In this document: positions 1 to 62,780 of the stretch, piece by piece
Numbering within the stretch: the stretch's first letter is position 1
Layout of the letters: each line of letters begins with the position of its first letter
Virus record (IMG/VR): IMGVR_UViG_3300036828_000344
Span: 1 to 62,780 of that record
DNA length: 62,780 bases
Strand: one strand, 5' to 3'
Source: a virus
Taxonomy: Duplodnaviria > Caudoviricetes
The notes under the pieces: generated by a model
Seen by the model: only the letters and a program-made list of their open reading frames with translations
Databases searched by the model: none
What the model was told of the DNA's origin: nothing
Position numbers and translations under genes: made by a program

Positions 1-141
1 AGCTCGCGCGCCATGACCTTGACGGCCATGTTGAGAGCGGCCTTGGAGGCGCAGTACGCGACGGAGCCGCGCATAGGGATCTCGGCCGCGTCCGACGATA
101 CCGCGACGGCCGAGAGCGCGCTGTTGGGGTATTGCAGTATG
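1..141. repeat. Terminal overlap, copy 1 (matches 62640-62780 except one base)
   Basis: Direct comparison of both ends; only mismatch is 127 G vs 62766 T. Indicates a circular or circularly permuted assembly. Confidence 0.97.
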
Positions 142-440
142 TGCTCGGATATAAGCGCGACGAATCCGGCGCAGTTGACCGAGAACATGTCTTCCATACG
201 GTAGACAATCTTCTGGTCGCTGACCCAGGCGAGCTGGTTGATTCCGGCCGAGTAGACGATGTGCGTGAACGGGCCGTATATCTCGCATAGCGTGATAATG
301 TCGGAGCGCGCCTCAACGTTTACCTCGGTGCGAGTAGGCATGAACTGCCATAGCTCCGGATTGCGTTTGGCTAGTAGCTCAGCAGTCGCCGCGCCGATGC
401 CGGAATGGCCGCCGATGATGAGGACTTTACCATCCTTCAT
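1..440 (-). CDS. Short-chain dehydrogenase/reductase (SDR), 5' part; continues across the join to 62390
   Basis: ATG at 440 reads MKDGKVLIIGGHSGIGAATAELL (GxxxGIG NAD(P) motif). The frame continues via the overlap into YCASK and RINAVAPG, giving 229 aa in total. Confidence 0.9.
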   Translation of the reverse strand, partial: MKDGKVLIIGGHSGIGAATAELLAKRNPELWQFMPTRTEVNVEARSDIITLCEIYGPFTHIVYSAGINQLAWVSDQKIVYRMEDMFSVNCAGFVALISEHILQYPNSALSAVAVSSDAAEIPMRGSVAYCASKAALNMAVKVMARE

Positions 441-1128
441 TGTTTTCCTTCCACCTCTCGATGTCTTTGGTAATTCGCATCCATAGCTCTTCCAGCGATA
501 GTACCCGGACGCCTGGGATACCGTCGCGCCGATTATATGGCTGGTCCCGTAGGTAGACCTTCCGGACTCCGTTAGTCATTGCGTCGGCCACCATGTCCGG
601 GAGATCATCCACAGCCGCGACGATTCGTGTGGGATTGACTTGCTCGACTAGCTCACGGTATTTGGTGGCCGGATTGCCGCCCTCAAGCAATCCTTCAAAT
701 AGCACGGCGTCATATTCGATGTGGTTACGCCGGAGCCATTCGCGCGTGTCTGGGTCGATGTTGTCTAGCCGGAGATACGGCCGGGTAGTACAGATCCAGA
801 CTTGTGCTTCCCATTCACGGATGCTGCGGGTTAGCTCAGCCGCGAACGGATAGGCTGGCATGAAGCGCTTGAGCCCACCCTGCCGGTAGGCGAGCTTGCA
901 CTGCTGGTACAGCGGATGTGGCACGCCCATGAAATCCGAGAGGCGAAGTCCAGGGTTGATATCGGTCGCGGAAGGCATAGGCATTCCCAGCCACTTCTCT
1001 GCGAACCAGAGGAAGTGTGCGTGGTAGTCGCCTAGCGTACCGTCGATGTCGATCGCGACTACAGGCTTGCCGTCTCCTGGACCTCGTGGCTTTACCTCGG
1101 CCGGCTGTGGAAGCACAATTGCTGTCAT
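427..1128 (-). CDS. HAD-superfamily phosphatase (5'(3')-deoxyribonucleotidase-like)
   Basis: DIDGT motif I, ICTTR motif II, VDD motif IV. Confidence 0.8.
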   Translation of the reverse strand: MTAIVLPQPAEVKPRGPGDGKPVVAIDIDGTLGDYHAHFLWFAEKWLGMPMPSATDINPGLRLSDFMGVPHPLYQQCKLAYRQGGLKRFMPAYPFAAELTRSIREWEAQVWICTTRPYLRLDNIDPDTREWLRRNHIEYDAVLFEGLLEGGNPATKYRELVEQVNPTRIVAAVDDLPDMVADAMTNGVRKVYLRDQPYNRRDGIPGVRVLSLEELWMRITKDIERWKENNEGW

Positions 1129-1376
1129 CGGATGATTACCGCTTCCTTGGCGAGGTCGGACACGATGAGAGCGAACGCATCATCCAGATTGATGTCTTCG
1201 ACTATGGGGTGAATTGAGGCTACCCGGATAGTCCGGTTCACCAGGCCGAAATGGTGGATGTGGTATATCGCCCGGTGTATGGGGCCGAGATCTGTGCTGA
1301 CGAGTAGTTCGGCGTCTGTTGCACCGATGTCGCGAACGGAGCCGCTAGCCGGGCCGTCTACGAATAGCGCGATCAT
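1125..1376 (-). CDS. Hypothetical protein
   Basis: ATGA overlaps with both neighbours inside the operon. Confidence 0.7.
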   Translation of the reverse strand: MIALFVDGPASGSVRDIGATDAELLVSTDLGPIHRAIYHIHHFGLVNRTIRVASIHPIVEDINLDDAFALIVSDLAKEAVIIR

Positions 1377-2221: not shown

Positions 2222-3079
2222 CTAGAACGGGATGTCATCCTTGGCGGCACGGCCACGGCCACGACGGGCCGGAGCCGCAGCCGGGGCCGGAGCGCGACCG
2301 GAAGAACGGCCTCCGCGCGGCGCAGAGCCGGACGCTGCGGGCCGCGCCGGAGCGCTCGCGGCCGGACGCCTACCGCGAGCCGGAGCTGCGGCCGTAGTCG
2401 CGCTCCGGGCCGCTCCGCGACGGCCACGAGCCGGAGCGGGCTCAGGCTCTGCCTCTGCCTCTTCGCCGTCCTCTTCGCCGTCCTCTTCCTCATACTCGTC
2501 ATCGGCCTCATCGTCGGCCGCTTCCTCGGCGTCCTCGCCCTCTTCATCGTCCTCATCGTCATAGGGCAGCCATTCCTTGACGCGAGGCGACATGACGCCG
2601 TTGTACGGCTCCTGTTCCGTGATGATCCGGCACCAGGCCTCATCGGAGTCCTCGCCCGGCCGGAAGCCGTCGATGGAGATGATCGGGGCACCGTTCTGGT
2701 CGGTCTTGTCTTCCACATCGACCTTGCGGGCCTTGATCGCCCGGATGGAGATCTGGAAGTTGTCGAGGAATGGGCCCCACCGGAACTTGGAGCCTGCGTT
2801 GAGCGCGGCGTTGAGCCAGAATGGGCAGTCGTTGTACTGCTCCAGGTCGCCTTCATTGTCGGCCGCGACGGTGAGAATCTTCAGCATGGGGTCGTTGCCG
2901 GAGCCGTTCGCCTTTGTGGCGGAGCGAGTCCACCACATCCGCTTGACGTAAGCGGTCAGTTCGGTGCCGACCGGAGGAACTTCGCCATAATAGCGGTCGA
3001 ATTCCTCGGTGGAGTATTCCGCTGATTCCAGTTCCTTGACGTCAAGGCTGGCGACATCTTCTGAGCGGAGCTTAGCCAT
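2222..3079 (-). CDS. Single-stranded DNA-binding protein (putative)
   Basis: Acidic tract and terminal DDIPF; lies after the exonuclease and AAA ATPase genes. Confidence 0.65.
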   Translation of the reverse strand: MAKLRSEDVASLDVKELESAEYSTEEFDRYYGEVPPVGTELTAYVKRMWWTRSATKANGSGNDPMLKILTVAADNEGDLEQYNDCPFWLNAALNAGSKFRWGPFLDNFQISIRAIKARKVDVEDKTDQNGAPIISIDGFRPGEDSDEAWCRIITEQEPYNGVMSPRVKEWLPYDDEDDEEGEDAEEAADDEADDEYEEEDGEEDGEEAEAEPEPAPARGRRGAARSATTAAAPARGRRPAASAPARPAASGSAPRGGRSSGRAPAPAAAPARRGRGRAAKDDIPF

Positions 3080-3132
3080 TGGTGGTTTACCTTTCGGATT
3101 CGTGACTGTGATCTAGGGAATTCTGGTGAAGC

Positions 3133-4128
3133 CTATGATCTGCTGTGTGCTCCCCTCTTGTGACGTACCGGAGCAGACGATGCCGCCGCTCCACGTGCTT
3201 GCGGAGCCATCCGGCTTGCTGGCCGTCTGGGTCGGCTAGCCTTAGCGGCTGCTCCTGCGATACCACTCGCACCTCTCGATTTCTCGATTGCCTCTATCAT
3301 CCGGGACATCGCGAAGAAATCACCTTCCTCAACATCCCAGGTCTTGCCGAGGGCCATATAACGGTCCTTAGCATACCAGGGTGGGAAAGGCTGGCAGAGG
3401 GCTCGCCTAGTAACTGGTCCTGTCATCTCCCGCGATTCCCGCGCTACCGCGTAGTATAGCGCGACGGAGAACTGGGAGGAAATGGCGTCTGATATCTCGC
3501 CTTTCTTCCCTAGTAGCAGCGGGATAACGCGCGGCTCGCCTTCCGCGTCATCAACCGACATTGACGTTGTGATAAAGATCACATTGGCGGGCATGTCGAT
3601 TAGCCGGGCGCACCAGCGCTTAAATCCGTTCTGGTACTTCTGATGGTTCTGAACGGCCGGTATGTCGAGGTCGCGCTTTGGATTGATCGCGTTCTCGCGC
3701 TCTAGGATCCAGCGCATGTACATGTCCTGCATGACCGTGCCGGAGTCGATCACAAACCAGTCCTTGCCGGTCAGCTCCTGCTCGGCCTTCTGGACTCCGG
3801 CCACCGCATGTTCCCAGGACGGAGCCCGCCAGAGACCAGCCTGCGAGCCTATGGCCCGTGCGCTCGCCACGCCTTCCGTCTCGGTCGATAGGAACACGAC
3901 CTTGCGCGAGCCATCTGCTGCGCCTCCGGCTAGTAGCGTTTTGCCGTGCCCGGACGGCCCGTGTACGAGAATGTTGATCGGCCGCTTGGCTGGATTGGGG
4001 TCTGAAAGGTCTTCAACCTCAATCTCAACGTCAGTCTCGATCATTGCCAGTGGGTTTTCCCTGACCTGCTTTGCCGATGGTGCCCTGGTGCGGACTCCGG
4101 TTAGCGGCCGGTCTGTTGTATCAGTCAT
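3133..4128 (-). CDS. AAA ATPase (Sak4/RecA-like)
   Basis: Walker A GPSGHGKT, Walker B FVIDS, YAKDR motif; TAATG overlap with the upstream gene. Confidence 0.85.
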   Translation of the reverse strand: MTDTTDRPLTGVRTRAPSAKQVRENPLAMIETDVEIEVEDLSDPNPAKRPINILVHGPSGHGKTLLAGGAADGSRKVVFLSTETEGVASARAIGSQAGLWRAPSWEHAVAGVQKAEQELTGKDWFVIDSGTVMQDMYMRWILERENAINPKRDLDIPAVQNHQKYQNGFKRWCARLIDMPANVIFITTSMSVDDAEGEPRVIPLLLGKKGEISDAISSQFSVALYYAVARESREMTGPVTRRALCQPFPPWYAKDRYMALGKTWDVEEGDFFAMSRMIEAIEKSRGASGIAGAAAKASRPRRPASRMAPQARGAAASSAPVRHKRGAHSRS

Positions 4129-15252: not shown

Positions 15253-15666
15253 TCAGTCTTTCTTCGCGCGGAGCGTACCATCCTGCACGTTCCACTCAAG
15301 CTCCACGCCCTCATCCGCGAGGGTATCGGCTGCCTGGTTCATCTGGTCTTGCTCTGGCAGCACAGGCAGCTCGCCCGGCTTGCCGAACTGGATGCCGGAC
15401 GTATCCACGCCCTGCGCCCGGAGGGCTCCGGTGATGGCTGCCTGTGACCGTCGCCTCTGCCACCGGAAGGTGGAAATGGTGAACGCGACTACTCCGGCCG
15501 TACCGGCGATGATGCCGACTGCGATCAGCATGTAGATCAGCGTCTGGATGATGACCTCATGGTAGATGTAGATCATGATGCCAGCTGCGATCAGCATGAT
15601 GAGGACGGCTAGTGCTGGGGACATCTGTGCGCGGCTCGCGCTCCGCTCCATCCATCGCCTAATCAT
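15253..15666 (-). CDS. Two-TM membrane protein (Spd-like accessory of the transfer module)
   Basis: Two hydrophobic segments; ATGA overlap with the stop of the FtsK/TraB-like gene. Confidence 0.7.
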   Translation of the reverse strand: MIRRWMERSASRAQMSPALAVLIMLIAAGIMIYIYHEVIIQTLIYMLIAVGIIAGTAGVVAFTISTFRWQRRRSQAAITGALRAQGVDTSGIQFGKPGELPVLPEQDQMNQAADTLADEGVELEWNVQDGTLRAKKD

Positions 15667-17336
15667 GCCGCCAGTCCTTTCCGGTTCACCAGCGCGTAGT
15701 CGTGTAGCCACTGCTCGTCATCCATGAAGCCCTGCGTCCAGGTTCGCTTGTTGCCCTGGCACACTAGTATCTTACCCGGTCCTTCCAGACATTCCTCGCC
15801 AGGCGAGCCGATTGTGCGGATGAACTGGTTGGGCTGGAAGCCAGCTGCGCAGAACGCGCTGAACGCGAACTTGAGGGACTGGCCTCCCATCGCCCGGTCG
15901 GTCAGATCCTGGAACATGAACTCACCGAACATGTTGGCCTGCCGGCCCTGCTGGAGTAGCGGTGCGATTGCCTCAGCCCACACAGACGGGCTCGCGCTCG
16001 ATTCGCCAAGAGTCTTGGTCCAGTAGTTCTTGAGCTTGCCGCCGAGGTGGTTGCCCTCATCACAGAAGATCCAGATGTCACCGAAATCAGACAGATGCTT
16101 CCGCCGCTCGCGGACGGCCGTGTACCTTTCCTCCAGGATACCGTTGAGCTTGTAGAAGATATCCCAGATCTTATCCATCTCCGTCACCGGATTGTCGAAG
16201 ATATGGACGCCGGGAATCCCGTGGAGAGCTTCAAAGCTGACCTGCTTGGTGTCGATGCAGTATATCTGGGCCGCTGGATCCTTGTGAGCGATCTGCGCGA
16301 CCTTTACCATGAAGCTCATCGACTTGCCCGTGCCGGAGCCCATGAACCTGCACCACCATGGGAGGTCTCCGTTGTGGCTCTGCACGTACACCGAACCTTC
16401 AGCCCGGACGCCTAGCCCGGTCTCCCGTGCTCCGAGAGCCTGGATGGCCGGGAGGTAGTCGCGGAGCCGCACCATGCTCGGCAGCTTGGGGATGATGACC
16501 GGTATCCAGGCGAGCGAGCGCGGGCTGACGGTAGTGTTCCAGCTGAAGCGAACCTTGCCGATCGTATGTGCCTCAATGATCTCCTGGATTGACTCGCGGT
16601 CGCGCACCAGGGCCGCAAACGTATCCGGTAGCCGTAGCTCGCCGCGCTCCGGGCTCATCTTTAGCAGGCTCATTGCCTCGGCCGAGGAACAGCCCATCTT
16701 GCTCGCGAGTAGCGAAGCCAGGACGTTCTTGGGGATGCCTTCCAGCTGTGGCTTCTCTTCCTCAACGAGAATCGGCCTCGTGCCGACCGTCATTGCGTCG
16801 GCTCCAAACACCCGCTTGGCGACCTGCGTCTGCGCCATGGCCGGCGCATGGACCGGATGAGTCTTGCGGTAGCTCGCGCGAGCCCGGATAATCCAGATCG
16901 CGAGCCGGAGCATAACCAGGCAGAAGATCAGGATGACTATGGCGCGGATCGTATCGGCCGGAGCGAACGCCAGGCAGCTTAGCAGGACCAGGACGGTGAA
17001 GACAGCCAGGTTGTTGCGGATGGCCCGGTAAAGTCGCGAGTGGGGCGTGAAGTAGACAAGTGTGCCTTCCGGAGTCGCTTTCTTGGTGCCTCCGGCCGCA
17101 GACCGGAGTCGCCTCTCATCGCCAAAAGACTTCTCTGGATGGAAGTGTGCGCCCGTGTGGAACCGTACCAGTACGCGGTGGATCTTGCCGGGCCGTCCGG
17201 GATGTCGCCAGCCGAGGTATTCCTGACCGTAGCCGTTGAGGATCCACGCGGAAGCCGTGATAATGTACAGCCCAAAGTAGACCAGGAACGGTATCCACCA
17301 CTGTACGTGGAGGCCACGCAAGATCAGTCCGGTCAT
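15663..17336 (-). CDS. TraB/FtsK-SpoIIIE-like membrane-anchored DNA translocase
   Basis: N-terminal TM helices, Walker A GSGTGKS, IDTK, Walker B WIFCDE, QGRQ, and a late PG-K/R segment. Confidence 0.8.
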   Translation of the reverse strand: MTGLILRGLHVQWWIPFLVYFGLYIITASAWILNGYGQEYLGWRHPGRPGKIHRVLVRFHTGAHFHPEKSFGDERRLRSAAGGTKKATPEGTLVYFTPHSRLYRAIRNNLAVFTVLVLLSCLAFAPADTIRAIVILIFCLVMLRLAIWIIRARASYRKTHPVHAPAMAQTQVAKRVFGADAMTVGTRPILVEEEKPQLEGIPKNVLASLLASKMGCSSAEAMSLLKMSPERGELRLPDTFAALVRDRESIQEIIEAHTIGKVRFSWNTTVSPRSLAWIPVIIPKLPSMVRLRDYLPAIQALGARETGLGVRAEGSVYVQSHNGDLPWWCRFMGSGTGKSMSFMVKVAQIAHKDPAAQIYCIDTKQVSFEALHGIPGVHIFDNPVTEMDKIWDIFYKLNGILEERYTAVRERRKHLSDFGDIWIFCDEGNHLGGKLKNYWTKTLGESSASPSVWAEAIAPLLQQGRQANMFGEFMFQDLTDRAMGGQSLKFAFSAFCAAGFQPNQFIRTIGSPGEECLEGPGKILVCQGNKRTWTQGFMDDEQWLHDYALVNRKGLAA

Positions 17337-18232
17337 TACCCACTCTTCTCATGAGCCTCGCGGTAGGCAGCCTTGACGTCATCCGGTAGCGGGCCGCGAC
17401 GGCCAACACGGCCACGGTACTCCGGACGGTCTAGCGCCCATTCACGAATGTGGATGTCTGGCTTGTGACGGCCTTCCCAGGTACCGTCACGTGGAGCGGC
17501 CTCGCGCCGGTCGCGGTGCTGCTTGAGAACTTCCGGAGGCGCGACCTCGGCCGTGCGTTCCTGGACCGGCTCTGCGCCGCTGCTGGCCGGCTCTGCGGGT
17601 GCGGGCTCGATACGCTCGCGGACGTTCCGGACGGCTCGCGCCTCGCGCTTGAATTCCTCAGCCAGCGTCAGCGCCACGATCTGGAGCGCAGATGAACGGG
17701 CCACGACAATGTCGCGGAGGTCGCGCAGTGTGGAGAGTGGGAACAGGATCCAGCGTATGATGCCGTACTTGGGCAGTGGCGATGGGTAGATGGAACCGGC
17801 TCGCGCTTGCGCCTTGCGCCGCTCATAGTGGATGTGAATGTCGTACAGGACGGCTGCTATGACGGGAAGGCTCGCCCACATTAGCCATGCGCCGGGAGGC
17901 TCGCCGGCCAGCCGGGCGTGGAAGGTCTGGAGGAATGCCGACACGAGCGCCAGACAGTTGACGAATATGCGCGGCTTGGAGCCAGACATTCCCTTCTGTG
18001 CATACTTTAGCGAGTAGTCGGCTCCGACCAGAGCCGCACCGTCAAAGCAGGTACTCATGAAGATCGCGATGTATGGCGGCACGCCAAAGTGGCGCGCGAC
18101 CCAGAAAAGCGAGTAAGCGCTCACGCCGAGAATTGGCACGAGTACGAGCAGCCAGATAAAGCGGGTGTAAGCTACCCGCGCGAACGCTGCCAGCCTACTC
18201 CGGTAAGAGCCGGTAGGCGTAGGATCGGACAT
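17336..18232 (-). CDS. SpdA/DUF2637-like 4-TM protein with C-terminal Lsr2-like DNA-binding domain
   Basis: Four hydrophobic helices with SAYSL.WVA..FG and FDG, an RW.L.P..T segment, and C-terminal IREWA...VGRRGPLPDDVKAAY. Confidence 0.7.
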   Translation of the reverse strand: MSDPTPTGSYRSRLAAFARVAYTRFIWLLVLVPILGVSAYSLFWVARHFGVPPYIAIFMSTCFDGAALVGADYSLKYAQKGMSGSKPRIFVNCLALVSAFLQTFHARLAGEPPGAWLMWASLPVIAAVLYDIHIHYERRKAQARAGSIYPSPLPKYGIIRWILFPLSTLRDLRDIVVARSSALQIVALTLAEEFKREARAVRNVRERIEPAPAEPASSGAEPVQERTAEVAPPEVLKQHRDRREAAPRDGTWEGRHKPDIHIREWALDRPEYRGRVGRRGPLPDDVKAAYREAHEKSG

Positions 18233-52355: not shown

Positions 52356-52880
52356 ATGTGGCGCTGGAGCCCGCTTGAGCTAGCAGAATTCGACCGCATG
52401 CTTACCATCGCGGTTCAGGTTCTGGCGGCTGGTGGCGGGCTCCGGCAGCTATTCTTTGCGGAGGCCGGTAGCGGAATAGGAACCAAGCTCTATCTCGCGA
52501 AGAATTACTTTGGTCTCCACGAGACCGGCTATGAGATATCGCCAGAGTACCTAGTCCGGTCGGGCGAGCTAGGCGTGAACGCATTCCGCTGGGATCTCCG
52601 CGAGAAAGACCCACCATGGTCTCACTTCGATATCGTCTACACGGCCCGGCCGTTCAAGAATGATGACTATGAGGTCGAATGGGAGCGGTCGGTTCAGGCC
52701 GCCATGAAGCCAGGAGCCGTCCTGATATCGGCATACACGGCCGACAAGCCATACAAGTGGCCCTGCTACTATCGCGCTCCGTTCCGTGGGATATGGCGGA
52801 AGCCTCGCGCCGGTAACTACAGCAACATCATTCAGCGGGTAGCGCCACACGATCCGCTAGTGCCAGAACCAGGGCCGTAA
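52356..52880 (+). CDS. Class I SAM-dependent methyltransferase (true start probably near 52275)
   Basis: FAEAGSGIG motif I, GYE, FDIVY..RP and MKPGA. Confidence 0.75.
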   Translation: MWRWSPLELAEFDRMLTIAVQVLAAGGGLRQLFFAEAGSGIGTKLYLAKNYFGLHETGYEISPEYLVRSGELGVNAFRWDLREKDPPWSHFDIVYTARPFKNDDYEVEWERSVQAAMKPGAVLISAYTADKPYKWPCYYRAPFRGIWRKPRAGNYSNIIQRVAPHDPLVPEPGP

Positions 52881-57442: not shown

Positions 57443-58377
57443 GGTCTGTCATCCTCTTTGCTGATTGGGTACTGGAGCCGGTCTGCCTTAGGCAGGGTTA
57501 CGTTACAGCCCTCCGCTATCCGGGCCGAGGTCTCGATGGCCTCCCAGGCAGCCGTCCGCGAAAGGCCAGTCTTCATCAGCCGTCCGGCTAGCTCGCGATC
57601 GGATTCCGGTAGCGTCATCGGCACTTCATAATTCCACTCGCGAAGTACGTCATCAATCGAATGCTTGCCGCGATGAACGGCATGAAGGATAGCCTGCATT
57701 TCGCCATCCTCCGGCCGAGGGTAATGGACGTCACAAGTGACTACAAGCGGCACGCCAGTTTCTTTCGACAGCTTTTCATACGCGCGGTTTATCCGGCCGG
57801 ACTTATCCAGCTCCCAGAATGGCTGGACCTCAAGATAGAAGTCATCGCCAAACAGACGCTGGAACCGGTGAATGACTAGCCTTGCATCATCCCAGCCGTA
57901 GCCGTCTCGCGAGGTCGGCTCCGGTATATTCTTACCACCGACCAGAGAGCAGGCGAGCAGCGAGCCCGTACAGCCGGATAGCGCCACGAGACCTTCGCGG
58001 TTAGCCGCGAGGCTTACGCCGGAGACGGTCGGATGATAATGGTAATCCTTCCAGGACTGCGTTATGACCTTGTTGAGGTTCCGGTATCCCGTCTGATTCC
58101 TCGCGAGAATCGTTAGGTGGAATTTGTACTGTCCCCTGTGTTCCTCGTCAACGGCTCCGGTATAAGCCTCCAGCCCAAAGATAGGCTTGATGCCGGCAAT
58201 GAGCGCGTACTTCTCAAGCTGGAAGTGAGAGCTATTCCCGCCATGCTCGGTAAGCGCCATAGCGGTATAGCCGAGGGCGGCAGCGCGCTCGACATGGAAC
58301 CGTGGCAGCTTATGTCCGTCTCCGTGGCTGAAGGTCGAATGGCCGTGGAGATTGACATACTCCATAGCGGGATTCAT
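57391..58377 (-). CDS. PHP domain of DNA polymerase III alpha, encoded as a separate gene
   Basis: LHGHSTFS..DG, ALTEHG, IKPIFGLEAY, HLTILA, LSGC and T.DVHY. Confidence 0.93.
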   Translation of the reverse strand: MNPAMEYVNLHGHSTFSHGDGHKLPRFHVERAAALGYTAMALTEHGGNSSHFQLEKYALIAGIKPIFGLEAYTGAVDEEHRGQYKFHLTILARNQTGYRNLNKVITQSWKDYHYHPTVSGVSLAANREGLVALSGCTGSLLACSLVGGKNIPEPTSRDGYGWDDARLVIHRFQRLFGDDFYLEVQPFWELDKSGRINRAYEKLSKETGVPLVVTCDVHYPRPEDGEMQAILHAVHRGKHSIDDVLREWNYEVPMTLPESDRELAGRLMKTGLSRTAAWEAIETSARIAEGCNVTLPKADRLQYPISKEDDRPWTSTGKRPSAIPSRVS

Positions 58378-58528
58378 TGCTTCCAGCCCGCGAGCCGCTT
58401 ACGCCACCAGGTTGCCATACGGAAGTCTAGGCACCCACATTCCGGCATAGAGCAGTCAAGCCCCATCCGGTGATGCTCGTGGGCGAGGTACCTGTGGCCG
58501 CACATACACAGCCGGTTATCGAGAGGCA

Positions 58529-58903
58529 TTAGCCGGGCTCCCCTAGCTCGCCCCACTTTGTGCCCTTGTTCCGGAGGCGCCAGTACATACCGCCGAACGT
58601 CACAAGGTCGATGGCTGAGTCGCCGTCGAATTCGTCATGCCGCCAGGAGCGGTACCTGAGGCGTCCGGCCTTGTTGAGGATATCGAGCACGAGACCTTTC
58701 CAGCCTTTGCTCCGCCAGGTTGAGCCGTCCGGGGCATAGCCGCGAGTCGACATAATCATCAGCGAGAGCGCGTACGGCCCGGCCAGCTGATCGATGGCGT
58801 CTGGGGTCGGGTTGACTCCGAGGACTTTGATGAAGTCGAATGCGGCGTCATGGATGACGTCATCATCGATTTCCTCCAGGATCATTTCCTCTTGGGTATT
58901 CAT
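58529..58903 (-). CDS. Nucleotide-modification-associated domain (Nmad1/DUF1599-like, alpha-helical pyrophosphatase fold)
   Basis: Y...W...G......K..RL...DS..DL..F pattern; genomic context. Confidence 0.55.
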   Translation of the reverse strand: MNTQEEMILEEIDDDVIHDAAFDFIKVLGVNPTPDAIDQLAGPYALSLMIMSTRGYAPDGSTWRSKGWKGLVLDILNKAGRLRYRSWRHDEFDGDSAIDLVTFGGMYWRLRNKGTKWGELGEPG

Positions 58904-59166
58904 TCGCTCGCCTTTCTGACTTGCTCTTTGGTCCAGATACCGTCAAGCTCAGTAGTCGCCGGCCATTGACAGCCGCGACATTTGAGGAGTACGGTCGTTG
59001 TGCTGCTCGCCGGCATACGCGGGTGAATAGGGCTCGCCGGTAGCTTTACCCCTAGTATATCCCACATATGGACGTGCGCATTACTCGCCATTACCTGGAA
59101 TGCGCCGATGATGTGCTCGGCTATCCGCTGGAATGCCTCGGCGTCTGATGGTGCGTCCTCGGCCAT
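58900..59166 (-). CDS. Hypothetical protein
   Basis: Overlaps both neighbours; H.H.W and C..C. Confidence 0.6.
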   Translation of the reverse strand: MAEDAPSDAEAFQRIAEHIIGAFQVMASNAHVHMWDILGVKLPASPIHPRMPASSTTTVLLKCRGCQWPATTELDGIWTKEQVRKASE

Positions 59167-60077
59167 TATGGCCTCCGGGCTGCGCCGTAGCTAAGCGGCT
59201 CGTGCGGGTGAATGTCGGTCCACGTCTCCGGCCGGTCGCCTTTTCTGTGGTGCTCTTCCACGCGGTCGCGGATGTCGCAGTGCCGGTCAGCTGGGCCCAT
59301 GAACTCACAGCGGCCGGTCTGATAGCAGACGGGCCGGAACATCCGCACGATTGCTTCCTGCTGCCAGCGTTCCTCGTCCGGGCCGTAGGCGAGGATGGCG
59401 CGGATGATCTGTGCCCAGACCTGCTTCCACTCATACTGCGCTTGCGAGCAGAGCCGGAGCCCGGCGTGATCGATGAGGTTCCGGAGATTCGTGTGGTAGT
59501 GCATCCGGGTACCGATGTTGGTCGGCAGGACTCCGCGAGCGTCCTCGGCCGGAACGCCACCGTTCACCATCCGGCCGTAGCTCGCGGCTATGTACCGGGA
59601 TGTGGTCGTCCACTCGACTCGCAGCGGGTGATCTTCCGCTAGCCTCGCGATGAATTCCGGCATGATGATTGCCGTCTCGGCATCATCCTTGACCGCGAAT
59701 CGCATCGACTCCTGGACGTAGGTAGCCGTCCTCTGCCGGACGGCCTGGTGCGTCCAGCCTCGCGTGACGCCGGAGATGTGGAGGGAGATGCTGACCCATT
59801 CGAGCGGAGCCGGTAGGCCGCGCGCCTTGAGCGCACCGTGGTACCACTCCATCGCCCGTTCCTGCGTCACCAGGCGTGGGTCAGTAAAGACTCCACCCCG
59901 GTATAGCTCGCTGACCGCCGCGACTAGCCGGAGCGGATTCGCGGTCATGTCGACTACCGTGACCGTGGGGCCGCTTGCGTCAACGGGCTCGGCCGAGTAC
60001 ATCGCCTGATCGGCCCAGCGGACGGGCAGCCTAGGCCGGTCGCCCGGATCGTTGGGGTGTGGTCCTGGTCCAGCCAT
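59166..60077 (-). CDS. thyX: ThyX-like flavin-dependent enzyme with altered motifs
   Basis: GVTR..THQ.VRQR......ESMRF, EDARGVLP, NLR.L and RLC..AQ.EW. Confidence 0.85.
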   Translation of the reverse strand: MAGPGPHPNDPGDRPRLPVRWADQAMYSAEPVDASGPTVTVVDMTANPLRLVAAVSELYRGGVFTDPRLVTQERAMEWYHGALKARGLPAPLEWVSISLHISGVTRGWTHQAVRQRTATYVQESMRFAVKDDAETAIIMPEFIARLAEDHPLRVEWTTTSRYIAASYGRMVNGGVPAEDARGVLPTNIGTRMHYHTNLRNLIDHAGLRLCSQAQYEWKQVWAQIIRAILAYGPDEERWQQEAIVRMFRPVCYQTGRCEFMGPADRHCDIRDRVEEHHRKGDRPETWTDIHPHEPLSYGAARRP

Positions 60078-60376
60078 CAGTTCTTCTCCGGTTCTGGTGC
60101 GTTGAGTATGAGTGATGCCATCTCCAGGAATACCTCGGAGAGATCATGCTTGCTAAAAGTTTTGTTGGCCGGAAGCCAGAACGTAATGGCGCTCCGGTCG
60201 TCATCGTCGGCCGTGTGGTGAAGGATGTCCGGGCTCGCGAGGTACATGCGGGCTCCGAAATACCGGATGCCGGTATCGGCTAGCTTGGATACCAGCTCAA
60301 TTTCCGGGGTGAGTTCCTGAGAGTAGACGTTAATGCGCATTGCCGTCTCCGTTCTGATTCGCCTGCATTCGCGCAT
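60077..60376 (-). CDS. Hypothetical protein (likely start at MRINVYSQE)
   Basis: Operon packing. Confidence 0.6.
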   Translation of the reverse strand: MRECRRIRTETAMRINVYSQELTPEIELVSKLADTGIRYFGARMYLASPDILHHTADDDDRSAITFWLPANKTFSKHDLSEVFLEMASLILNAPEPEKN

Positions 60377-60791
60377 ATATCGTCGCGAGCTTACCCATTA
60401 GTATATCGCGCGTCATCTGCGCATCCTTTGTAAAATGCTGAAGCGCGAGAATTCCGGTGAATACCACATCGGCTATCTCGTCCAGCATCGCGCCGAATGC
60501 CTCTGCGTTCTCCGGCTTGCGGGGATTCTGGCCGGTAAACAGGATGAGGTCGGCAATCGACTTGCCGAGAGGAATGAGGATATGGCTAATGCGCGAGTAG
60601 TCCTCATCGGTCGCGTCCGTCATGGAGTCCAGGGCTTCCATGGCCTCGCTCAGTTCCTCGGTGATCTTCGCCACACGGGCCCAGTCCTGCGCCATGGGCT
60701 GGTTCTGGTACTTGACGGCTACCGCTCCGTCCAGCCAGAGGTCGATACTCGCGACTGACTGCCAGTCGATTGTGTCTACCTGATAATTCAT
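60330..60791 (-). CDS. MazG-like nucleotide pyrophosphohydrolase
   Basis: KITEELSE, GQNPRK and DEIADV. Confidence 0.75.
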   Translation of the reverse strand: MNYQVDTIDWQSVASIDLWLDGAVAVKYQNQPMAQDWARVAKITEELSEAMEALDSMTDATDEDYSRISHILIPLGKSIADLILFTGQNPRKPENAEAFGAMLDEIADVVFTGILALQHFTKDAQMTRDILMGKLATIYARMQANQNGDGNAH

Positions 60792-61657
60792 TTCTCTCCG
60801 ACCTCCCAGTCAAATGCCTTTGTGGTATGGATATTGCCGAGAATGTAATCGTCAACGTTGAGGCAGTCGGTTATGAAATTCCTCCACCGACAGCGGTACT
60901 TGGCCGGAGGCCGCGAGATATAGCGCTCGCCCCAACGGTCGAAGAATGCCTGGTGAACGCGCGCCCAGGATTCGGCCGACCGGTCATCCATCGACACGCC
61001 ACCGAATTCCGGCCCTGGATTCTGCCGCAACATTCCGTTTGTGGATATCCCGGTATAGATATACCAGGGAACGTTCATGCCTTTGTAGGCATACCGGGCT
61101 AGCTCGACATCCTCGGCCATCCGGAGCTTAGGGTCAAATCCTCCGACGTACTGAACGTTGCCGACGTTCAGGCCAAAGCAGTGATAGCCCAGGCTTCCGT
61201 TGTGGAGCCAGATACCGGGCTCGCGGTAGTTCTCCGCCATAGCGGTACCGCGCGAGAACAGGCCGTGTATTGACTCCCAGGCTCCGATTCCGACAACGTC
61301 ATCACGGGAGGCTGCCGCCAGGAGGCCCATAAGGTCTCCCTTGATGACCTGATCGTCATCGATCATGACGATAGCTTTGTAGCCGCGAGCGTTCGCGTGC
61401 CTGACGCAGAGGTCTCTGGCGTAGCCGATGCCCTTGGCGGGCTCGCTCCATTCCCGTCCGTCGCGCCACATAGGCAGCGCGAGACGGCTCCGGGTAATCG
61501 CCTCTCCGGTCTCCCGCTGGAACTGCCTAGCGGTCGTAACGTGAACCGGTACGGTGGCGTCCTGGGCTGCCAGAGCCTCGTGCACGGCCCTGATAGCGCG
61601 GATGAGGTACCGCGTCCGGTCGCGAGTCGGGATGTAGACTGCGTACTTGTCCGGCAT
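60788..61657 (-). CDS. GT-A glycosyltransferase resembling TET/JBP-associated DNA glycosyltransferases
   Basis: VYIPTRDR, GIGYAR, MIDDD, EDVEL and late GG motif. Confidence 0.75.
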   Translation of the reverse strand: MPDKYAVYIPTRDRTRYLIRAIRAVHEALAAQDATVPVHVTTARQFQRETGEAITRSRLALPMWRDGREWSEPAKGIGYARDLCVRHANARGYKAIVMIDDDQVIKGDLMGLLAAASRDDVVGIGAWESIHGLFSRGTAMAENYREPGIWLHNGSLGYHCFGLNVGNVQYVGGFDPKLRMAEDVELARYAYKGMNVPWYIYTGISTNGMLRQNPGPEFGGVSMDDRSAESWARVHQAFFDRWGERYISRPPAKYRCRWRNFITDCLNVDDYILGNIHTTKAFDWEVGEK

Positions 61658-62238
61658 CAGTACTCCACAAAGTCCTCGGTGCGGATCAGCTGCGTCACGA
61701 GAACCGTGTTGCGCTCCGTTAGGCCCATGATCATGTTGAAGCCAATCCGGAGCTTCCAGCCTCTCCCATCATCACCGTCAACGGCTCCGTCTCCGGTGTC
61801 ATAGTAGTGGTCGCTGAAGGCATTCTTCCAGACGTCAGTCGCGAACCGGGTACGGTGCTCGAAACAGTTGTGCGCTAGCTCCGAGGTATAGTGGCCGGCT
61901 ATGTTGACGAACCAGCCGCCCACCTTGAGGACTCGCTGTGCTTCTGCGAGCACAAAGACCGGCCGGGCGAAATGGTCCATGGCGTGGGAGGTAAAGATGC
62001 CATCGACCGACTCATCGTCATACGGTAGCTGGTCCTTGTTGGCGTCCCATTCCGGGTAATCAAGATTGCGCCAGTCGTATGTGGCCATAGGGCTGCCGTC
62101 GATTGTCTTCCGGCCGGAGCCTAGGTGAAGGTACAGGCCTCCGGTAACCGGGTATGTGTCGATAAATCTGGGGAAGTCACGGATCATCCCGATATTGAAA
62201 TGGTCCCAGAGGCTTACCGGGTGGCTGAAGTCGGTCAT
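61657..62238 (-). CDS. SAM-dependent methyltransferase (Methyltransf_11-like)
   Basis: LHLGSG, LPYDDESVD.I..SH..DH and RVLKVGG. Confidence 0.82.
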   Translation of the reverse strand: MTDFSHPVSLWDHFNIGMIRDFPRFIDTYPVTGGLYLHLGSGRKTIDGSPMATYDWRNLDYPEWDANKDQLPYDDESVDGIFTSHAMDHFARPVFVLAEAQRVLKVGGWFVNIAGHYTSELAHNCFEHRTRFATDVWKNAFSDHYYDTGDGAVDGDDGRGWKLRIGFNMIMGLTERNTVLVTQLIRTEDFVEY

Positions 62239-62390
62239 TTTGCTTCCTCCGGGATGGGGTGTTCTACCATTACTGAAGTCCAGCCGTTGTCGCCCATCCG
62301 GCCGTAAAGCGCCGATAGGATCTGCGACATCAGCTTGTCGTCCGGTATCTCTTCCTTACGGCCAAGATGAATTCTGACGTCGATAAACAT
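62235..62390 (-). CDS. 51-aa hypothetical protein
   Basis: TAATG and ATGA overlaps with the SDR and methyltransferase genes. Confidence 0.55.
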   Translation of the reverse strand: MFIDVRIHLGRKEEIPDDKLMSQILSALYGRMGDNGWTSVMVEHPIPEEAK

Positions 62391-62780
62391 TAGCGGCCTC
62401 CGTTGATTGAGATGATAGAGCCGGTCATCTGTGCCGGGCCGGTCAGGACCCAGGCGATTGTCTCGGCTACCTCTGCGAGGCTCGCTCGCCGCTTAGTTGG
62501 GACGTTCTGCCGTTCATAGTTGCGGGCCTGATCCGGAGTCCAGCCACGGAATGTGGGCACGGCATCATCGATGTAGTCGGTCATGTCCGTGTCCTCCACC
62601 ATGCCGGGCGCGACCGCGTTGATGCGATGGAGCGGAGCTAGCTCGCGCGCCATGACCTTGACGGCCATGTTGAGAGCGGCCTTGGAGGCGCAGTACGCGA
62701 CGGAGCCGCGCATAGGGATCTCGGCCGCGTCCGACGATACCGCGACGGCCGAGAGCGCGCTGTTGTGGTATTGCAGTATG
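62390..62780 (-). CDS. SDR, 3' part (joins 1-440)
   Basis: YCASKAA catalytic motif, RINAVAPG and terminal TG.II.INGG. Confidence 0.9.
   Translation of the reverse strand, partial: ILQYHNSALSAVAVSSDAAEIPMRGSVAYCASKAALNMAVKVMARELAPLHRINAVAPGMVEDTDMTDYIDDAVPTFRGWTPDQARNYERQNVPTKRRASLAEVAETIAWVLTGPAQMTGSIISINGGR
62640..62780. repeat. Terminal overlap, copy 2
   Basis: Matches 1-141. Confidence 0.97.

Follow-up and report, generated by a model that had tools for sequence, protein, structure and literature searches.

To our knowledge, the glycosylated phage DNAs described so far all start from an enzyme of the ThyA fold or from a TET/JBP dioxygenase. The present analysis concerns a gene for a soluble GT-A glycosyltransferase in an uncultured tailed virus, IMG/VR record IMGVR_UViG_3300036828_000344 (62,780 nt, the whole of which is called the window below), where it lies in a long operon of replication and nucleotide-metabolism genes together with a ThyX-like flavin-dependent thymidylate synthase. 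A preliminary description of the DNA had read this operon as an undescribed hypermodification pathway, in which ThyX would take the place of ThyA or TET enzymes and the modified pyrimidine would be glycosylated and possibly methylated.

The closest described glycosyltransferases are the TAGT/JGT-like GT-A enzymes that act on DNA, found in T2/T6 and among metavirome enzymes paired with 5mYOX or thymidylate-synthase homologues. According to the available part of one report, PF20691 (TAGT) includes the T2/T6 enzyme by which glucosyl-hydroxymethylcytosine (hmC) receives its second glucose, has a GT-A fold, and is represented by solitary homologues in 288 of 753 phage genomes (PMC13216743). The accessible text of another describes the pattern R...DDD...EDY/F for phage DNA GT-A enzymes and the trypanosome JGT, and already has in print that the phage enzymes are often encoded near 'ThyS' or without a recognisable partner (bioRxiv 10.1101/2023.12.21.572611). 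The window shares with these systems the GT-A fold, a similar protein size, the motif, family-level hidden Markov model matches, viral structural neighbours, and a site among DNA-metabolism genes. Unlike them, its protein scores under the Pfam cut-off, has EDV in place of EDY/F, and is without a TET/5mYOX, ThyA-fold, or alpha-/beta-glycosyltransferase partner.

In pre-replicative hypermodification (T4 glucosyl-hmC, SPO1-type hydroxymethyluracil, and the arabinosyl-5-hydroxycytosine of RB69/DLP3) a C5-pyrimidine enzyme acts on the mononucleotide, a logic that the window shares, along with a pool-shaping NTPase, deaminase and nucleotidase, and a post-replicative glycosyltransferase. Those systems use ThyA-fold enzymes, whereas the window has the ThyX fold only, is without a dNMP kinase, and purges palindromes, unlike T4. 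The 5hodCMP synthase of RB69 type is a flavin-bound member of the ThyA superfamily, as stated in the part of the source available (PMC13326640). Among phages with thymidine hypermodification (M6, PaMx11 and ViI, with 5-hmdU, the kinase 5-HMUDK and aGPT-Pplase), M6 is like the window in being GC-rich, of siphovirus type, and strongly palindrome-avoiding, and its annotation places a dCMP deaminase and a thymidylate-synthase homologue near the polymerase. It differs in using a ThyA-type enzyme (by annotation, and in the accessible text of PMC8989533). Profile scans of the window detected no P-loop 5-HMUDK, aGPT-Pplase, pyridoxal phosphate (PLP), or radical S-adenosylmethionine (SAM) genes of the M6/PaMx11/ViI type. 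Mycobacteriophages of the Che8/Corndog/Myrna type are said to glycosylate their virions with glycosyltransferases and methyltransferases encoded outside the structural operon, reportedly in work by Freeman and colleagues from 2023; the window enzyme differs from these in having no detectable similarity to any cultured-phage glycosyltransferase, and in that its family profile matches are DNA glycosyltransferases.

For the operon as a whole, the nearest matches in DNA and protein searches of 50,697 cultured phage records were cluster D mycobacteriophages and phages of Gordonia, Microbacterium, and Streptomyces. More than 100 cultured actinophages, of clusters D, DV, and others, have an annotated module of oxidoreductase, phosphatase, methyltransferase, FabG-like short-chain dehydrogenase/reductase (SDR), DnaE, MazG, and ThyX genes. 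The announcement of Xenia2 lists oxidoreductase, phosphatase, methyltransferase, FabG-like reductase, DnaE, MazG-like, and ThyX-like genes, of families common to clusters AE, BN, D, DG, DV, and EF (PMC11385102). Troll4 gp61-68 comprise the oxidoreductase homologue (gp61), a putative nucleotidase, methyltransferase, gp64, FabG-like reductase, DnaE, gp67, and ThyX; Hawkeye gp70-78 are arranged similarly, and Terapin carries the oxidoreductase, methyltransferase, a split DnaE, and ThyX. The cluster D/DV module (Troll4 gp61-68, Hawkeye gp70-78, Xenia2 gp69-84, Terapin gp60-73) and the window have the same genes and strand logic, with identities of 31% to 59%, shared synteny, and an exonuclease-Sak4 pair upstream. 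The gene order is unlike that of the cultured phages, ThyX preceding DnaE in the window, and cluster D/DV phages are without a homologue of the window glycosyltransferase or of its 153-amino-acid (aa) MazG-like protein. In three cultured-phage loci that were compared (16-18 kb each), tblastn found no homologue of the window proteins p88, p124, and p99 (Table 1).

The glycosyltransferase and its relatives

The window glycosyltransferase is of the TAGT/JGT-like GT-A kind. An exhaustive HMMER scan of 1.84 billion representatives recovered 117 relatives of about 270 aa. TAGT was matched at E<=1e-3 by 56 of 69 aligned members (best, 1.9e-15) and phrog_842 ('beta-glucosyl-HMC-alpha-glucosyltransferase') by 62, with Glycos_transf_2 matched by eight; the homologue in one related locus (L014; such L-numbers designate loci of relatives) lies over the TAGT cut-off at 28.2 bits. 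An acidic DxD-type site with the R...DDD...ED pattern is present, the residue after ED being V, not Y/F. Across the 69 sequences, R81, D100-D101-D102, and D183 either do not vary or are conserved in 90% or more, and E182 reaches 90% only in a 10-sequence alignment. The structure model has a GT-A fold (predicted local distance difference test, pLDDT, 92.2), and among its BFVD neighbours 7 of the top 50 are named as TAGT-domain proteins, while rank 32 is a beta-glucosyl-HMC-alpha-glycosyltransferase (template modelling score 0.60). The enzyme and its nearest homologues are mostly basic, with isoelectric points of 7.7-10.1 in 11 of the 12 listed and 6.35 in the other. Neither the window protein nor P0022, of the main subfamily, had a tblastn match among the 50,697 cultured phage records. 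In one relative the gene is present as two tandem copies (L040:2854-4500), and at L014:7518-8807 the longest open reading frame (ORF) over the gene has 429 aa, with about 160 extra N-terminal residues, the start codon there being an ORF call only.

Gene neighbourhoods were compared in 24 IMG/VR loci with the main (P0022) subfamily, two metagenome loci, and 39 Sak4-anchored loci of close relatives. The 10-sequence alignment found no loci in viral and genome contigs and two in metagenome contigs. Membership of L004 in the family was judged doubtful, its GT2-like gene being 29% identical and lying on a 10.5-kb fragment with a weak portal-protein match. In the loci examined, the glycosyltransferase gene is always on the replication/DNA-metabolism strand and never among structural or lysis genes, often near ThyX, MazG, or dCMP deaminase. 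It is beside or near ThyX in L005/L006, L023, L026, L027, L029, and L031; elsewhere it follows DnaE, precedes the exonuclease, or, in the closest kin, lies between DUF6011 and an SNF2 helicase. This last interval holds the gene in 17 of the 18 Sak4-anchored loci spanning it, which are related, not independent. A dCMP deaminase gene lies 3' of it in 8 of the 39 Sak4-anchored loci and also in L016, and in L029 it comes after a PRA-PH/MazG-like ORF, in L020 after a ParB gene. The DUF6011-SNF2 site is without the gene in two cases, the window among them; the single copy in the window belongs to another subfamily and lies, with the methyltransferase gene, between the SDR and MazG-like genes, where the closest relatives, L033 and L036, have nothing. 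Since the enzyme is retained in relatives and has been replaced in the window by one of another subfamily, its function appears to be under selection; we read this as a function kept through replacement at a new position and selected in the lineage.

That the enzyme acts on the phage's own DNA is plausible but unproven, and we give it somewhat less than an even chance, whatever the route to the acceptor. Under this proposal, an uncultured lineage would have recruited a soluble TAGT/JGT-like GT-A glycosyltransferase into a nucleotide-pool/replication module. Most likely, the enzyme would act once the phage DNA is replicated, adding a sugar to one of its pyrimidines that is hydroxylated, or to a sugar that this DNA already bears. 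The precursor would come from, and be biased by, pool enzymes centred on dUMP, namely the ThyX-like enzyme, MazG, the nucleotidase, and, in relatives, dCMP deaminase. The modification would probably be partial or sequence-limited, as in M6, not a complete replacement of the T4 kind. The analysis itself shows what the genes are, where the glycosyltransferase belongs by family, that the lineage as a whole retains it, and that ThyA and TET homologues are absent; DNA as the acceptor, the identity of the acceptor base, and the enzyme making that base are what we infer here.

Acceptor-base enzymes, ThyX and restriction-site palindromes

A number of results weigh against DNA as the acceptor. In six-frame profile scans of the 26 whole records with the glycosyltransferase family, the ThyA fold (PF00303) was found in none and Tet_JBP (PF12851) in none, the latter scan having no positive control. 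A Pfam scan of the listed window ORFs gave no ThyA-fold protein, no Tet_JBP, and no nucleotide kinase, the last as the preliminary description had observed, and no C5-methyltransferase, alpha-glycosyltransferase, or beta-glycosyltransferase was found accompanying the glycosyltransferase. The window protein itself reaches 24.0 bits against TAGT, under the Pfam gathering cut-off of 27.5, with only its donor-binding N-terminal half aligned (residues 5-102, to positions 1-88 of the 205 in the profile); of the glycosylation step proposed earlier, the family-wide matches to TAGT and phrog_842 and the site among pool and replication genes stand, and the match of the window protein falls short. Its fold neighbours in the PDB are generic GT-A enzymes with protein, teichoic acid, or nucleoside acceptors, including TarP/TarS, COLGALT1, ppGalNAcT, and the nucleoside glycosyltransferase AvpGT, and isoelectric points across the family are mixed (median 7.95). 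No report of modified DNA in the cultured module-bearing phages was found in the literature, and in about 65% of the contigs that encode such glycosyltransferases no base-modification enzyme lies nearby, according to the available part of the survey (bioRxiv 10.1101/2023.12.21.572611). The ThyX variants and the palindromes, described next, fall on the same side.

Because neither a ThyA-fold nor a TET homologue was detectable in the window or the 25 other records, ThyX is their only recognisable C5-pyrimidine enzyme. It was found in 17 of 25 glycosyltransferase-bearing records, including all five of those at least 90% complete, and all the misses are fragments. The window ThyX scores 107.1 bits in Pfam (cut-off 24.8) and 86.9 against NCBIfam TIGR02170, 1 bit short of its cut-off of 87.9. 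Compared with RHRxxSxxxxSxR, its motif R-Q-R-T-A-T-Y-V-Q-E-S-M-R has Q for H and T for the first S, while the two arginines at its start, the second S, and the closing R are retained; the later 'AR'/'LR' arginines align with those of T. maritima ThyX. In that alignment R78, R80, S88, R90, R147, and R174, which we take to be the dUMP-binding residues, are all kept. The C-terminal extension of this ThyX clade has the pattern RLC(S/T)QAQ ... P(V/I)C ... C.F ... DR.C.I, with four conserved cysteines. T. maritima ThyX has no counterpart of the first of these in the part that aligns; the alignment does not reach the other three, which are presumably absent from that enzyme. The cluster may be a metal or Fe-S site. 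Both the RQR variant and the Cys-rich tail are also found in Hawkeye and Troll4, neither of which has the glycosyltransferase, and the clade alignment revealed no ThyX change specific to phages that do. The earlier suggestion that ThyX stands in for ThyA or TET enzymes therefore holds as to the absence of the latter from 26 records, and loses force from ThyX variants common to phages without the glycosyltransferase. As far as the sequence goes, nothing in it would indicate a product other than dTMP, and no paper was found in which ThyX is linked with DNA glycosylation or with a base of the hydroxymethyl or hydroxy kind.

Palindromes of 6 bp were compared with a maximal-order Markov expectation, considering sites with at least six expected copies and counting as purged those with an observed/expected ratio <=0.25. 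The window purges 5 of 47, namely CCGCGG (0 copies against 43.7 expected), GAGCTC (0 against 27.3), CCCGGG (0 against 20.4), CTCGAG, and ACGCGT (0 copies each). Five other complete genomes with the glycosyltransferase purge from 4/50 to 14/51, and of two phages without it, Troll4 purges 2/42 and Xenia2 13/44; the controls were T4 (glucosyl-hmC), with 0/37, and the thymidine-hypermodified M6, with 19/35. Among non-palindromic 6-mers, 10 of 3238 were purged in the window and 0-14 of about 2,300-3,600 in the genomes compared. Palindrome purging implies that these phages are exposed to type II restriction. A T4-like, restriction-proof genome is excluded, and a partial, M6-like modification is compatible with the counts. 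Taken as an argument against any modification, purging is weakened, since the M6 control purges more than half of its sites. Separately, the tetranucleotide TGCA is depleted in the window (observed/expected 0.62); the ratio is 0.29-0.69 over the six complete glycosyltransferase-bearing genomes, all of them depleted, and the depletion is less in Troll4 (0.93) and Xenia2 (0.78).

The operon and the genome around it

The stretch around the glycosyltransferase gene is the distal half of a translationally coupled early operon of about 12 kb, in a complete virus of Actinomycetota-type composition from soil. The genes of the run are listed in transcription order in Table 1.

Table 1. The coupled minus-strand gene run of the window, from the oxidoreductase gene across the join of the window ends to the DnaE core.
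Feature	Position	Strand	Evidence or remark
FAD/NAD Rossmann 'oxidoreductase', 263 aa	1373..2164	-	GxGxxG motif; phrog_8720 4.9e-73
83-aa ORF	1125..1376	-	no family match; homologues in closest relatives L033-L036
HAD-type 5'-nucleotidase/phosphatase, 233 aa	427..1128	-	DIDGT motif; phrog_415 1.6e-15
FabG-like SDR, N-terminal part	1..440 (ORF 3-440)	-	PF00106 3.9e-15; gene crosses join
FabG-like SDR, C-terminal part	62390..62780 (ORF 62390-62779)	-	PF13561 5.7e-17; 62640-62780 repeats 1-141
51-aa ORF	62235..62390	-	no family match (Pfam, PHROG)
Small class-I SAM methyltransferase, 193 aa	61657..62238	-	PF08241 2.1e-9; phrog_6636 8.1e-42
Soluble GT-A glycosyltransferase, TAGT-like family, 289 aa	60788..61657	-	TAGT 24.0 bits; phrog_842 1.4e-8
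MazG-like NTP pyrophosphatase, 153 aa	60330..60791	-	PRA-PH E=0.025, 15.4 bits against a cut-off of 21.3
99-aa ORF (p99)	60077..60376	-	phrog_20753 1.3e-25; homologues 70-73% identical in L033, L035, L036
ThyX-like flavin-dependent thymidylate synthase, 303 aa	59166..60077	-	PF02511 1.2e-30; Cys-rich C-terminal extension
88-aa ORF (p88)	58900..59166	-	no family match; homologues in 17 relatives' loci, downstream of ThyX
124-aa ORF (p124; 'Nmad1-like' in the preliminary description)	58529..58903	-	kept between ThyX and DnaE in relatives
60-aa Cys/His-rich ORF	58374..58556	-	translation; no family match
PHP domain of DnaE, separate gene, 328 aa	57391..58377	-	PF02811 9.3e-29; phrog_405 2e-83
DnaE polymerase core, 795 aa	54795..57182	-	PF07733 7.3e-60; PF17657 5.6e-37

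Neighbours in this run nearly all overlap by 1 or 4 nt at their stop and start codons, the window ends carry a 141-nt repeat, and the SDR reading frame is continuous across the join (440-1, then 62780-62390), so the preliminary description was correct in seeing one coupled run there. The range it gave, 58529-62780, holds part of the run, and the oxidoreductase and phosphatase genes and DnaE lie outside it. Profile searches upheld its calls for the SDR, SAM methyltransferase, GT-A, ThyX-like, and DnaE proteins, and those for the flavin adenine dinucleotide (FAD) oxidoreductase and the haloacid dehalogenase (HAD) phosphatase are borne out more weakly, by motifs, PHROG matches, Atlas fold neighbours, and a homologue passing NT5C. 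The MazG-like call, also more weakly backed, belongs to the 153-aa ORF, not to the 99-aa ORF. The 124-aa protein had been called Nmad1-like, and this finds no backing: neither it (no Pfam match at E<=5) nor any of 17 homologues (none at E<=0.01, including DUF1599, PF07659) has a family match. Its alignment has 31 invariant columns, its model is all-helical and of low confidence (pLDDT 57), and a faint Atlas lead (score 0.88) points to a cluster with DUF1599 in 14% of members.

Matches of the oxidoreductase in Pfam and NCBIfam are weak, of FAD families, and limited to the N-terminal Rossmann part; its Atlas fold neighbours are of amine oxidase, flavin monooxygenase, and ThiO types, and its homologues are annotated 'oxidoreductase' in 126 cultured actinophage records. 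A lyase role like that of MnmC1 or PaMx11 gp47 was considered and is without sequence support, the protein matching actinophage records only. The HAD protein is 51-52% identical to the 'nucleotidase' of Hawkeye and Troll4, and its L023 homologue (44% identical) passes Pfam NT5C with 27.7 bits (cut-off 24.8). The best NCBIfam match of the SDR is pteridine reductase, at 68 bits far under the 288-bit cut-off. Homologues of the methyltransferase were found in 132 phage records, among them those of cluster D, Gordonia, and PB1-like Pseudomonas phages; the last carry the family among early hypothetical genes, away from nucleotide genes, and the methyltransferase was accordingly rejected as a marker of hypermodification; the methylation step proposed earlier finds no support in it. 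DnaE is split into two genes with a gap of 208 nt, as annotated likewise in Gordonia phage Terapin, and is one fused gene of about 1,100 aa in Troll4, Hawkeye, L023, and L029. For the 153-aa MazG-like protein, 118 homologues were found at E<=0.001; among the matches listed, some are named 'NTP pyrophosphatase' by JGI, one 'MazG-like' by NCBI, and two have PF01503, and acidic motifs of metal-binding type (E..E...E/D..D) were seen by eye in its translation. It had no sequence match in the PDB, no tblastn match among the 50,697 cultured records, and no BLASTP similarity to the PRA-PH-like ORF beside the L029 glycosyltransferase; the two may be different members of the superfamily.

The bulk of the operon is a conserved, already annotated, functionally unstudied actinophage module. 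Because this module is common to more than 100 cultured phages without the glycosyltransferase, the operon as a whole is no evidence of hypermodification, and the earlier view of it as one large undescribed pathway is not supported.

The record is rated 97% complete in IMG/VR and represents a siphovirus-type genome of about 62.6 kb with a GC content of about 60%. Bases 1-141 recur, as a direct repeat with a single mismatch, at 62640-62780; given this overlap of the ends, a circular reading gives a genome of about 62,639 bp. The repeat looks like a circular-assembly overlap or a terminal redundancy; its mismatch changes Pro to His within the duplicated part of the SDR, and the IMG/VR entry is labelled 'linear'. 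Two public runs hold the stretch, both of soil metagenomes (shares 1.00 and 0.12) and both available as contigs, with no RNA run among them. Terminase, portal, capsid, tail, tape measure, and endolysin genes lie on the plus strand, and the minus strand holds a long block of replication and nucleotide-metabolism genes. Profile scans of the window ORFs detected no integrase or lysogeny module, and the virus is apparently lytic. A 285-aa protein (2222-3079, minus strand), kept in all close relatives, has a long acidic, Arg/Ala/Pro-rich tail ending in DDIPF, a tip of the type known from bacterial single-strand DNA-binding proteins; because of this tail it is probably the phage's own protein of that type. 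Also in the early region, a 557-aa protein with a weak FtsK/SpoIIIE match adjoins a DUF2637 protein (15663-18232, minus strand), and 3' of the endolysin gene is a second, very weak methyltransferase-like ORF (52356-52880, plus strand; Methyltransf_12, E=0.014). Many relatives, though not the window, encode a protein of about 135 aa between the exonuclease and Sak4 genes with sub-threshold matches to PF05014 (nucleoside 2-deoxyribosyltransferase), of up to 27.6 bits against a cut-off of 28.8 (L044, L045, L050, L052, L057, L058, L060, L061, L062, L065, and L068).

Alternative explanations and significance

The glycosyltransferase may instead modify virion proteins, a host envelope polymer, or a small molecule, within an ordinary dNTP-supply and replication module in which ThyX makes dTMP, and MazG and the nucleotidase are 'house-cleaning' enzymes of the pool. 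This is a real possibility, if on the whole a doubtful one. The module does without the glycosyltransferase in cultured actinophages, ThyX keeps its presumed dUMP-binding residues, no acceptor-forming enzyme was found, and the genome is purged as DNA exposed to type II restriction would be. The TAGT score under the cut-off and PDB neighbours such as TarP/TarS, COLGALT1, ppGalNAcT, and AvpGT would also suit another acceptor; against this, the best family profile matches are DNA glycosyltransferases. A role on the virion is reportedly played by glycosyltransferase and methyltransferase genes in mycobacteriophages, yet tblastn found no match in the 50,697 cultured records, a set that should hold those phages, and seroconversion of a host would be suggested by an integrase or lysogeny module, of which none was detected. 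In the loci examined, moreover, the gene is always in a DNA-metabolism operon, with ThyX, MazG, dCMP deaminase, ParB, or a helicase adjoining, which argues against another acceptor. That the setting is mere adjacency in a compact early operon, the glycosyltransferase being a mobile 'moron' without functional tie to ThyX, MazG, or replication, is very unlikely. It would account for the gene's occurrence in at least four different positions of related genomes and for the lack of the methyltransferase-glycosyltransferase pair between the SDR and MazG-like genes in L033 and L036, and it runs counter to the selection on function implied by 17/18 retention and by replacement with a different subfamily, as well as to the location of every insertion site inside a DNA-metabolism operon.

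A further explanation is that the oxidoreductase, nucleotidase, methyltransferase, SDR, and ThyX together form a base-modification pathway, present also in the cultured cluster D/DV phages, to which the glycosyltransferase adds a lineage-specific last step; flavin-dependent C5 chemistry followed by tailoring would be one form of it. The five genes stay linked across clusters D, DV, EF, and others, and the oxidoreductase has a fold of the flavin amine-oxidase or monooxygenase type. Flavin enzymes acting on nucleobases are known, as in the PaMx11 gp47 lyase (PMC8989533) and the 5hodCMP synthase (PMC13326640), and the exocyclic-methylene intermediate of ThyX could be trapped by a nucleophile (discussion in PMC8989533), as given in the parts of these sources available. 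Set against these points, the oxidoreductase has no sequence link to PaMx11 gp47 and matches only the 126 actinophage records, PB1-like phages carry the methyltransferase family too, at a distance from nucleotide genes, the kinase and transferase typical of thymidine-hypermodification pathways are missing, and no report was found of modified DNA in these much-sequenced cultured phages; we regard such a pathway as unlikely.

If DNA is the acceptor, as we tentatively prefer, one specific route would be that a flavin enzyme neither of the ThyA fold nor of the TET type makes a hydroxymethylated or hydroxylated pyrimidine nucleotide, the pool being biased by MazG and the nucleotidase, and that this base is glycosylated in DNA by the TAGT-like enzyme. 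The candidates for the flavin step are the ThyX clade with the Cys cluster and the small FAD oxidoreductase. Such a route is chemically reasonable, given the precedent of the 5hodCMP synthase and the trappable ThyX methylene, as far as the available text of both sources describes them (PMC13326640, PMC8989533); no sequence signal in this analysis would support it, and we consider it improbable. If true, a hypermodified DNA base would for the first time be traced to a ThyX-type enzyme or a free-standing flavoprotein, and the unglycosylated precursor might also occur in cultured cluster D/DV phages.

What appears to be new is the lineage-wide presence of a TAGT-like enzyme in ThyX-only, DnaE-type actinophages without a cultured member. 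No paper on such a lineage was found in the literature, and the supplementary lists of bioRxiv 10.1101/2023.12.21.572611 may include such contigs. If the acceptor is not DNA, the replication module of these viruses is an ordinary actinophage one, and the glycosyltransferase is an accessory to it. The significance of the finding lies in the retention of a glycosyltransferase of the DNA type throughout an uncultured lineage in which no C5-pyrimidine enzyme but ThyX can be recognised: should the glycosyltransferase act on DNA, the base that receives the sugar must be made in a new way, with a bearing on anti-restriction and anti-CRISPR biology and on enzymatic DNA labelling.

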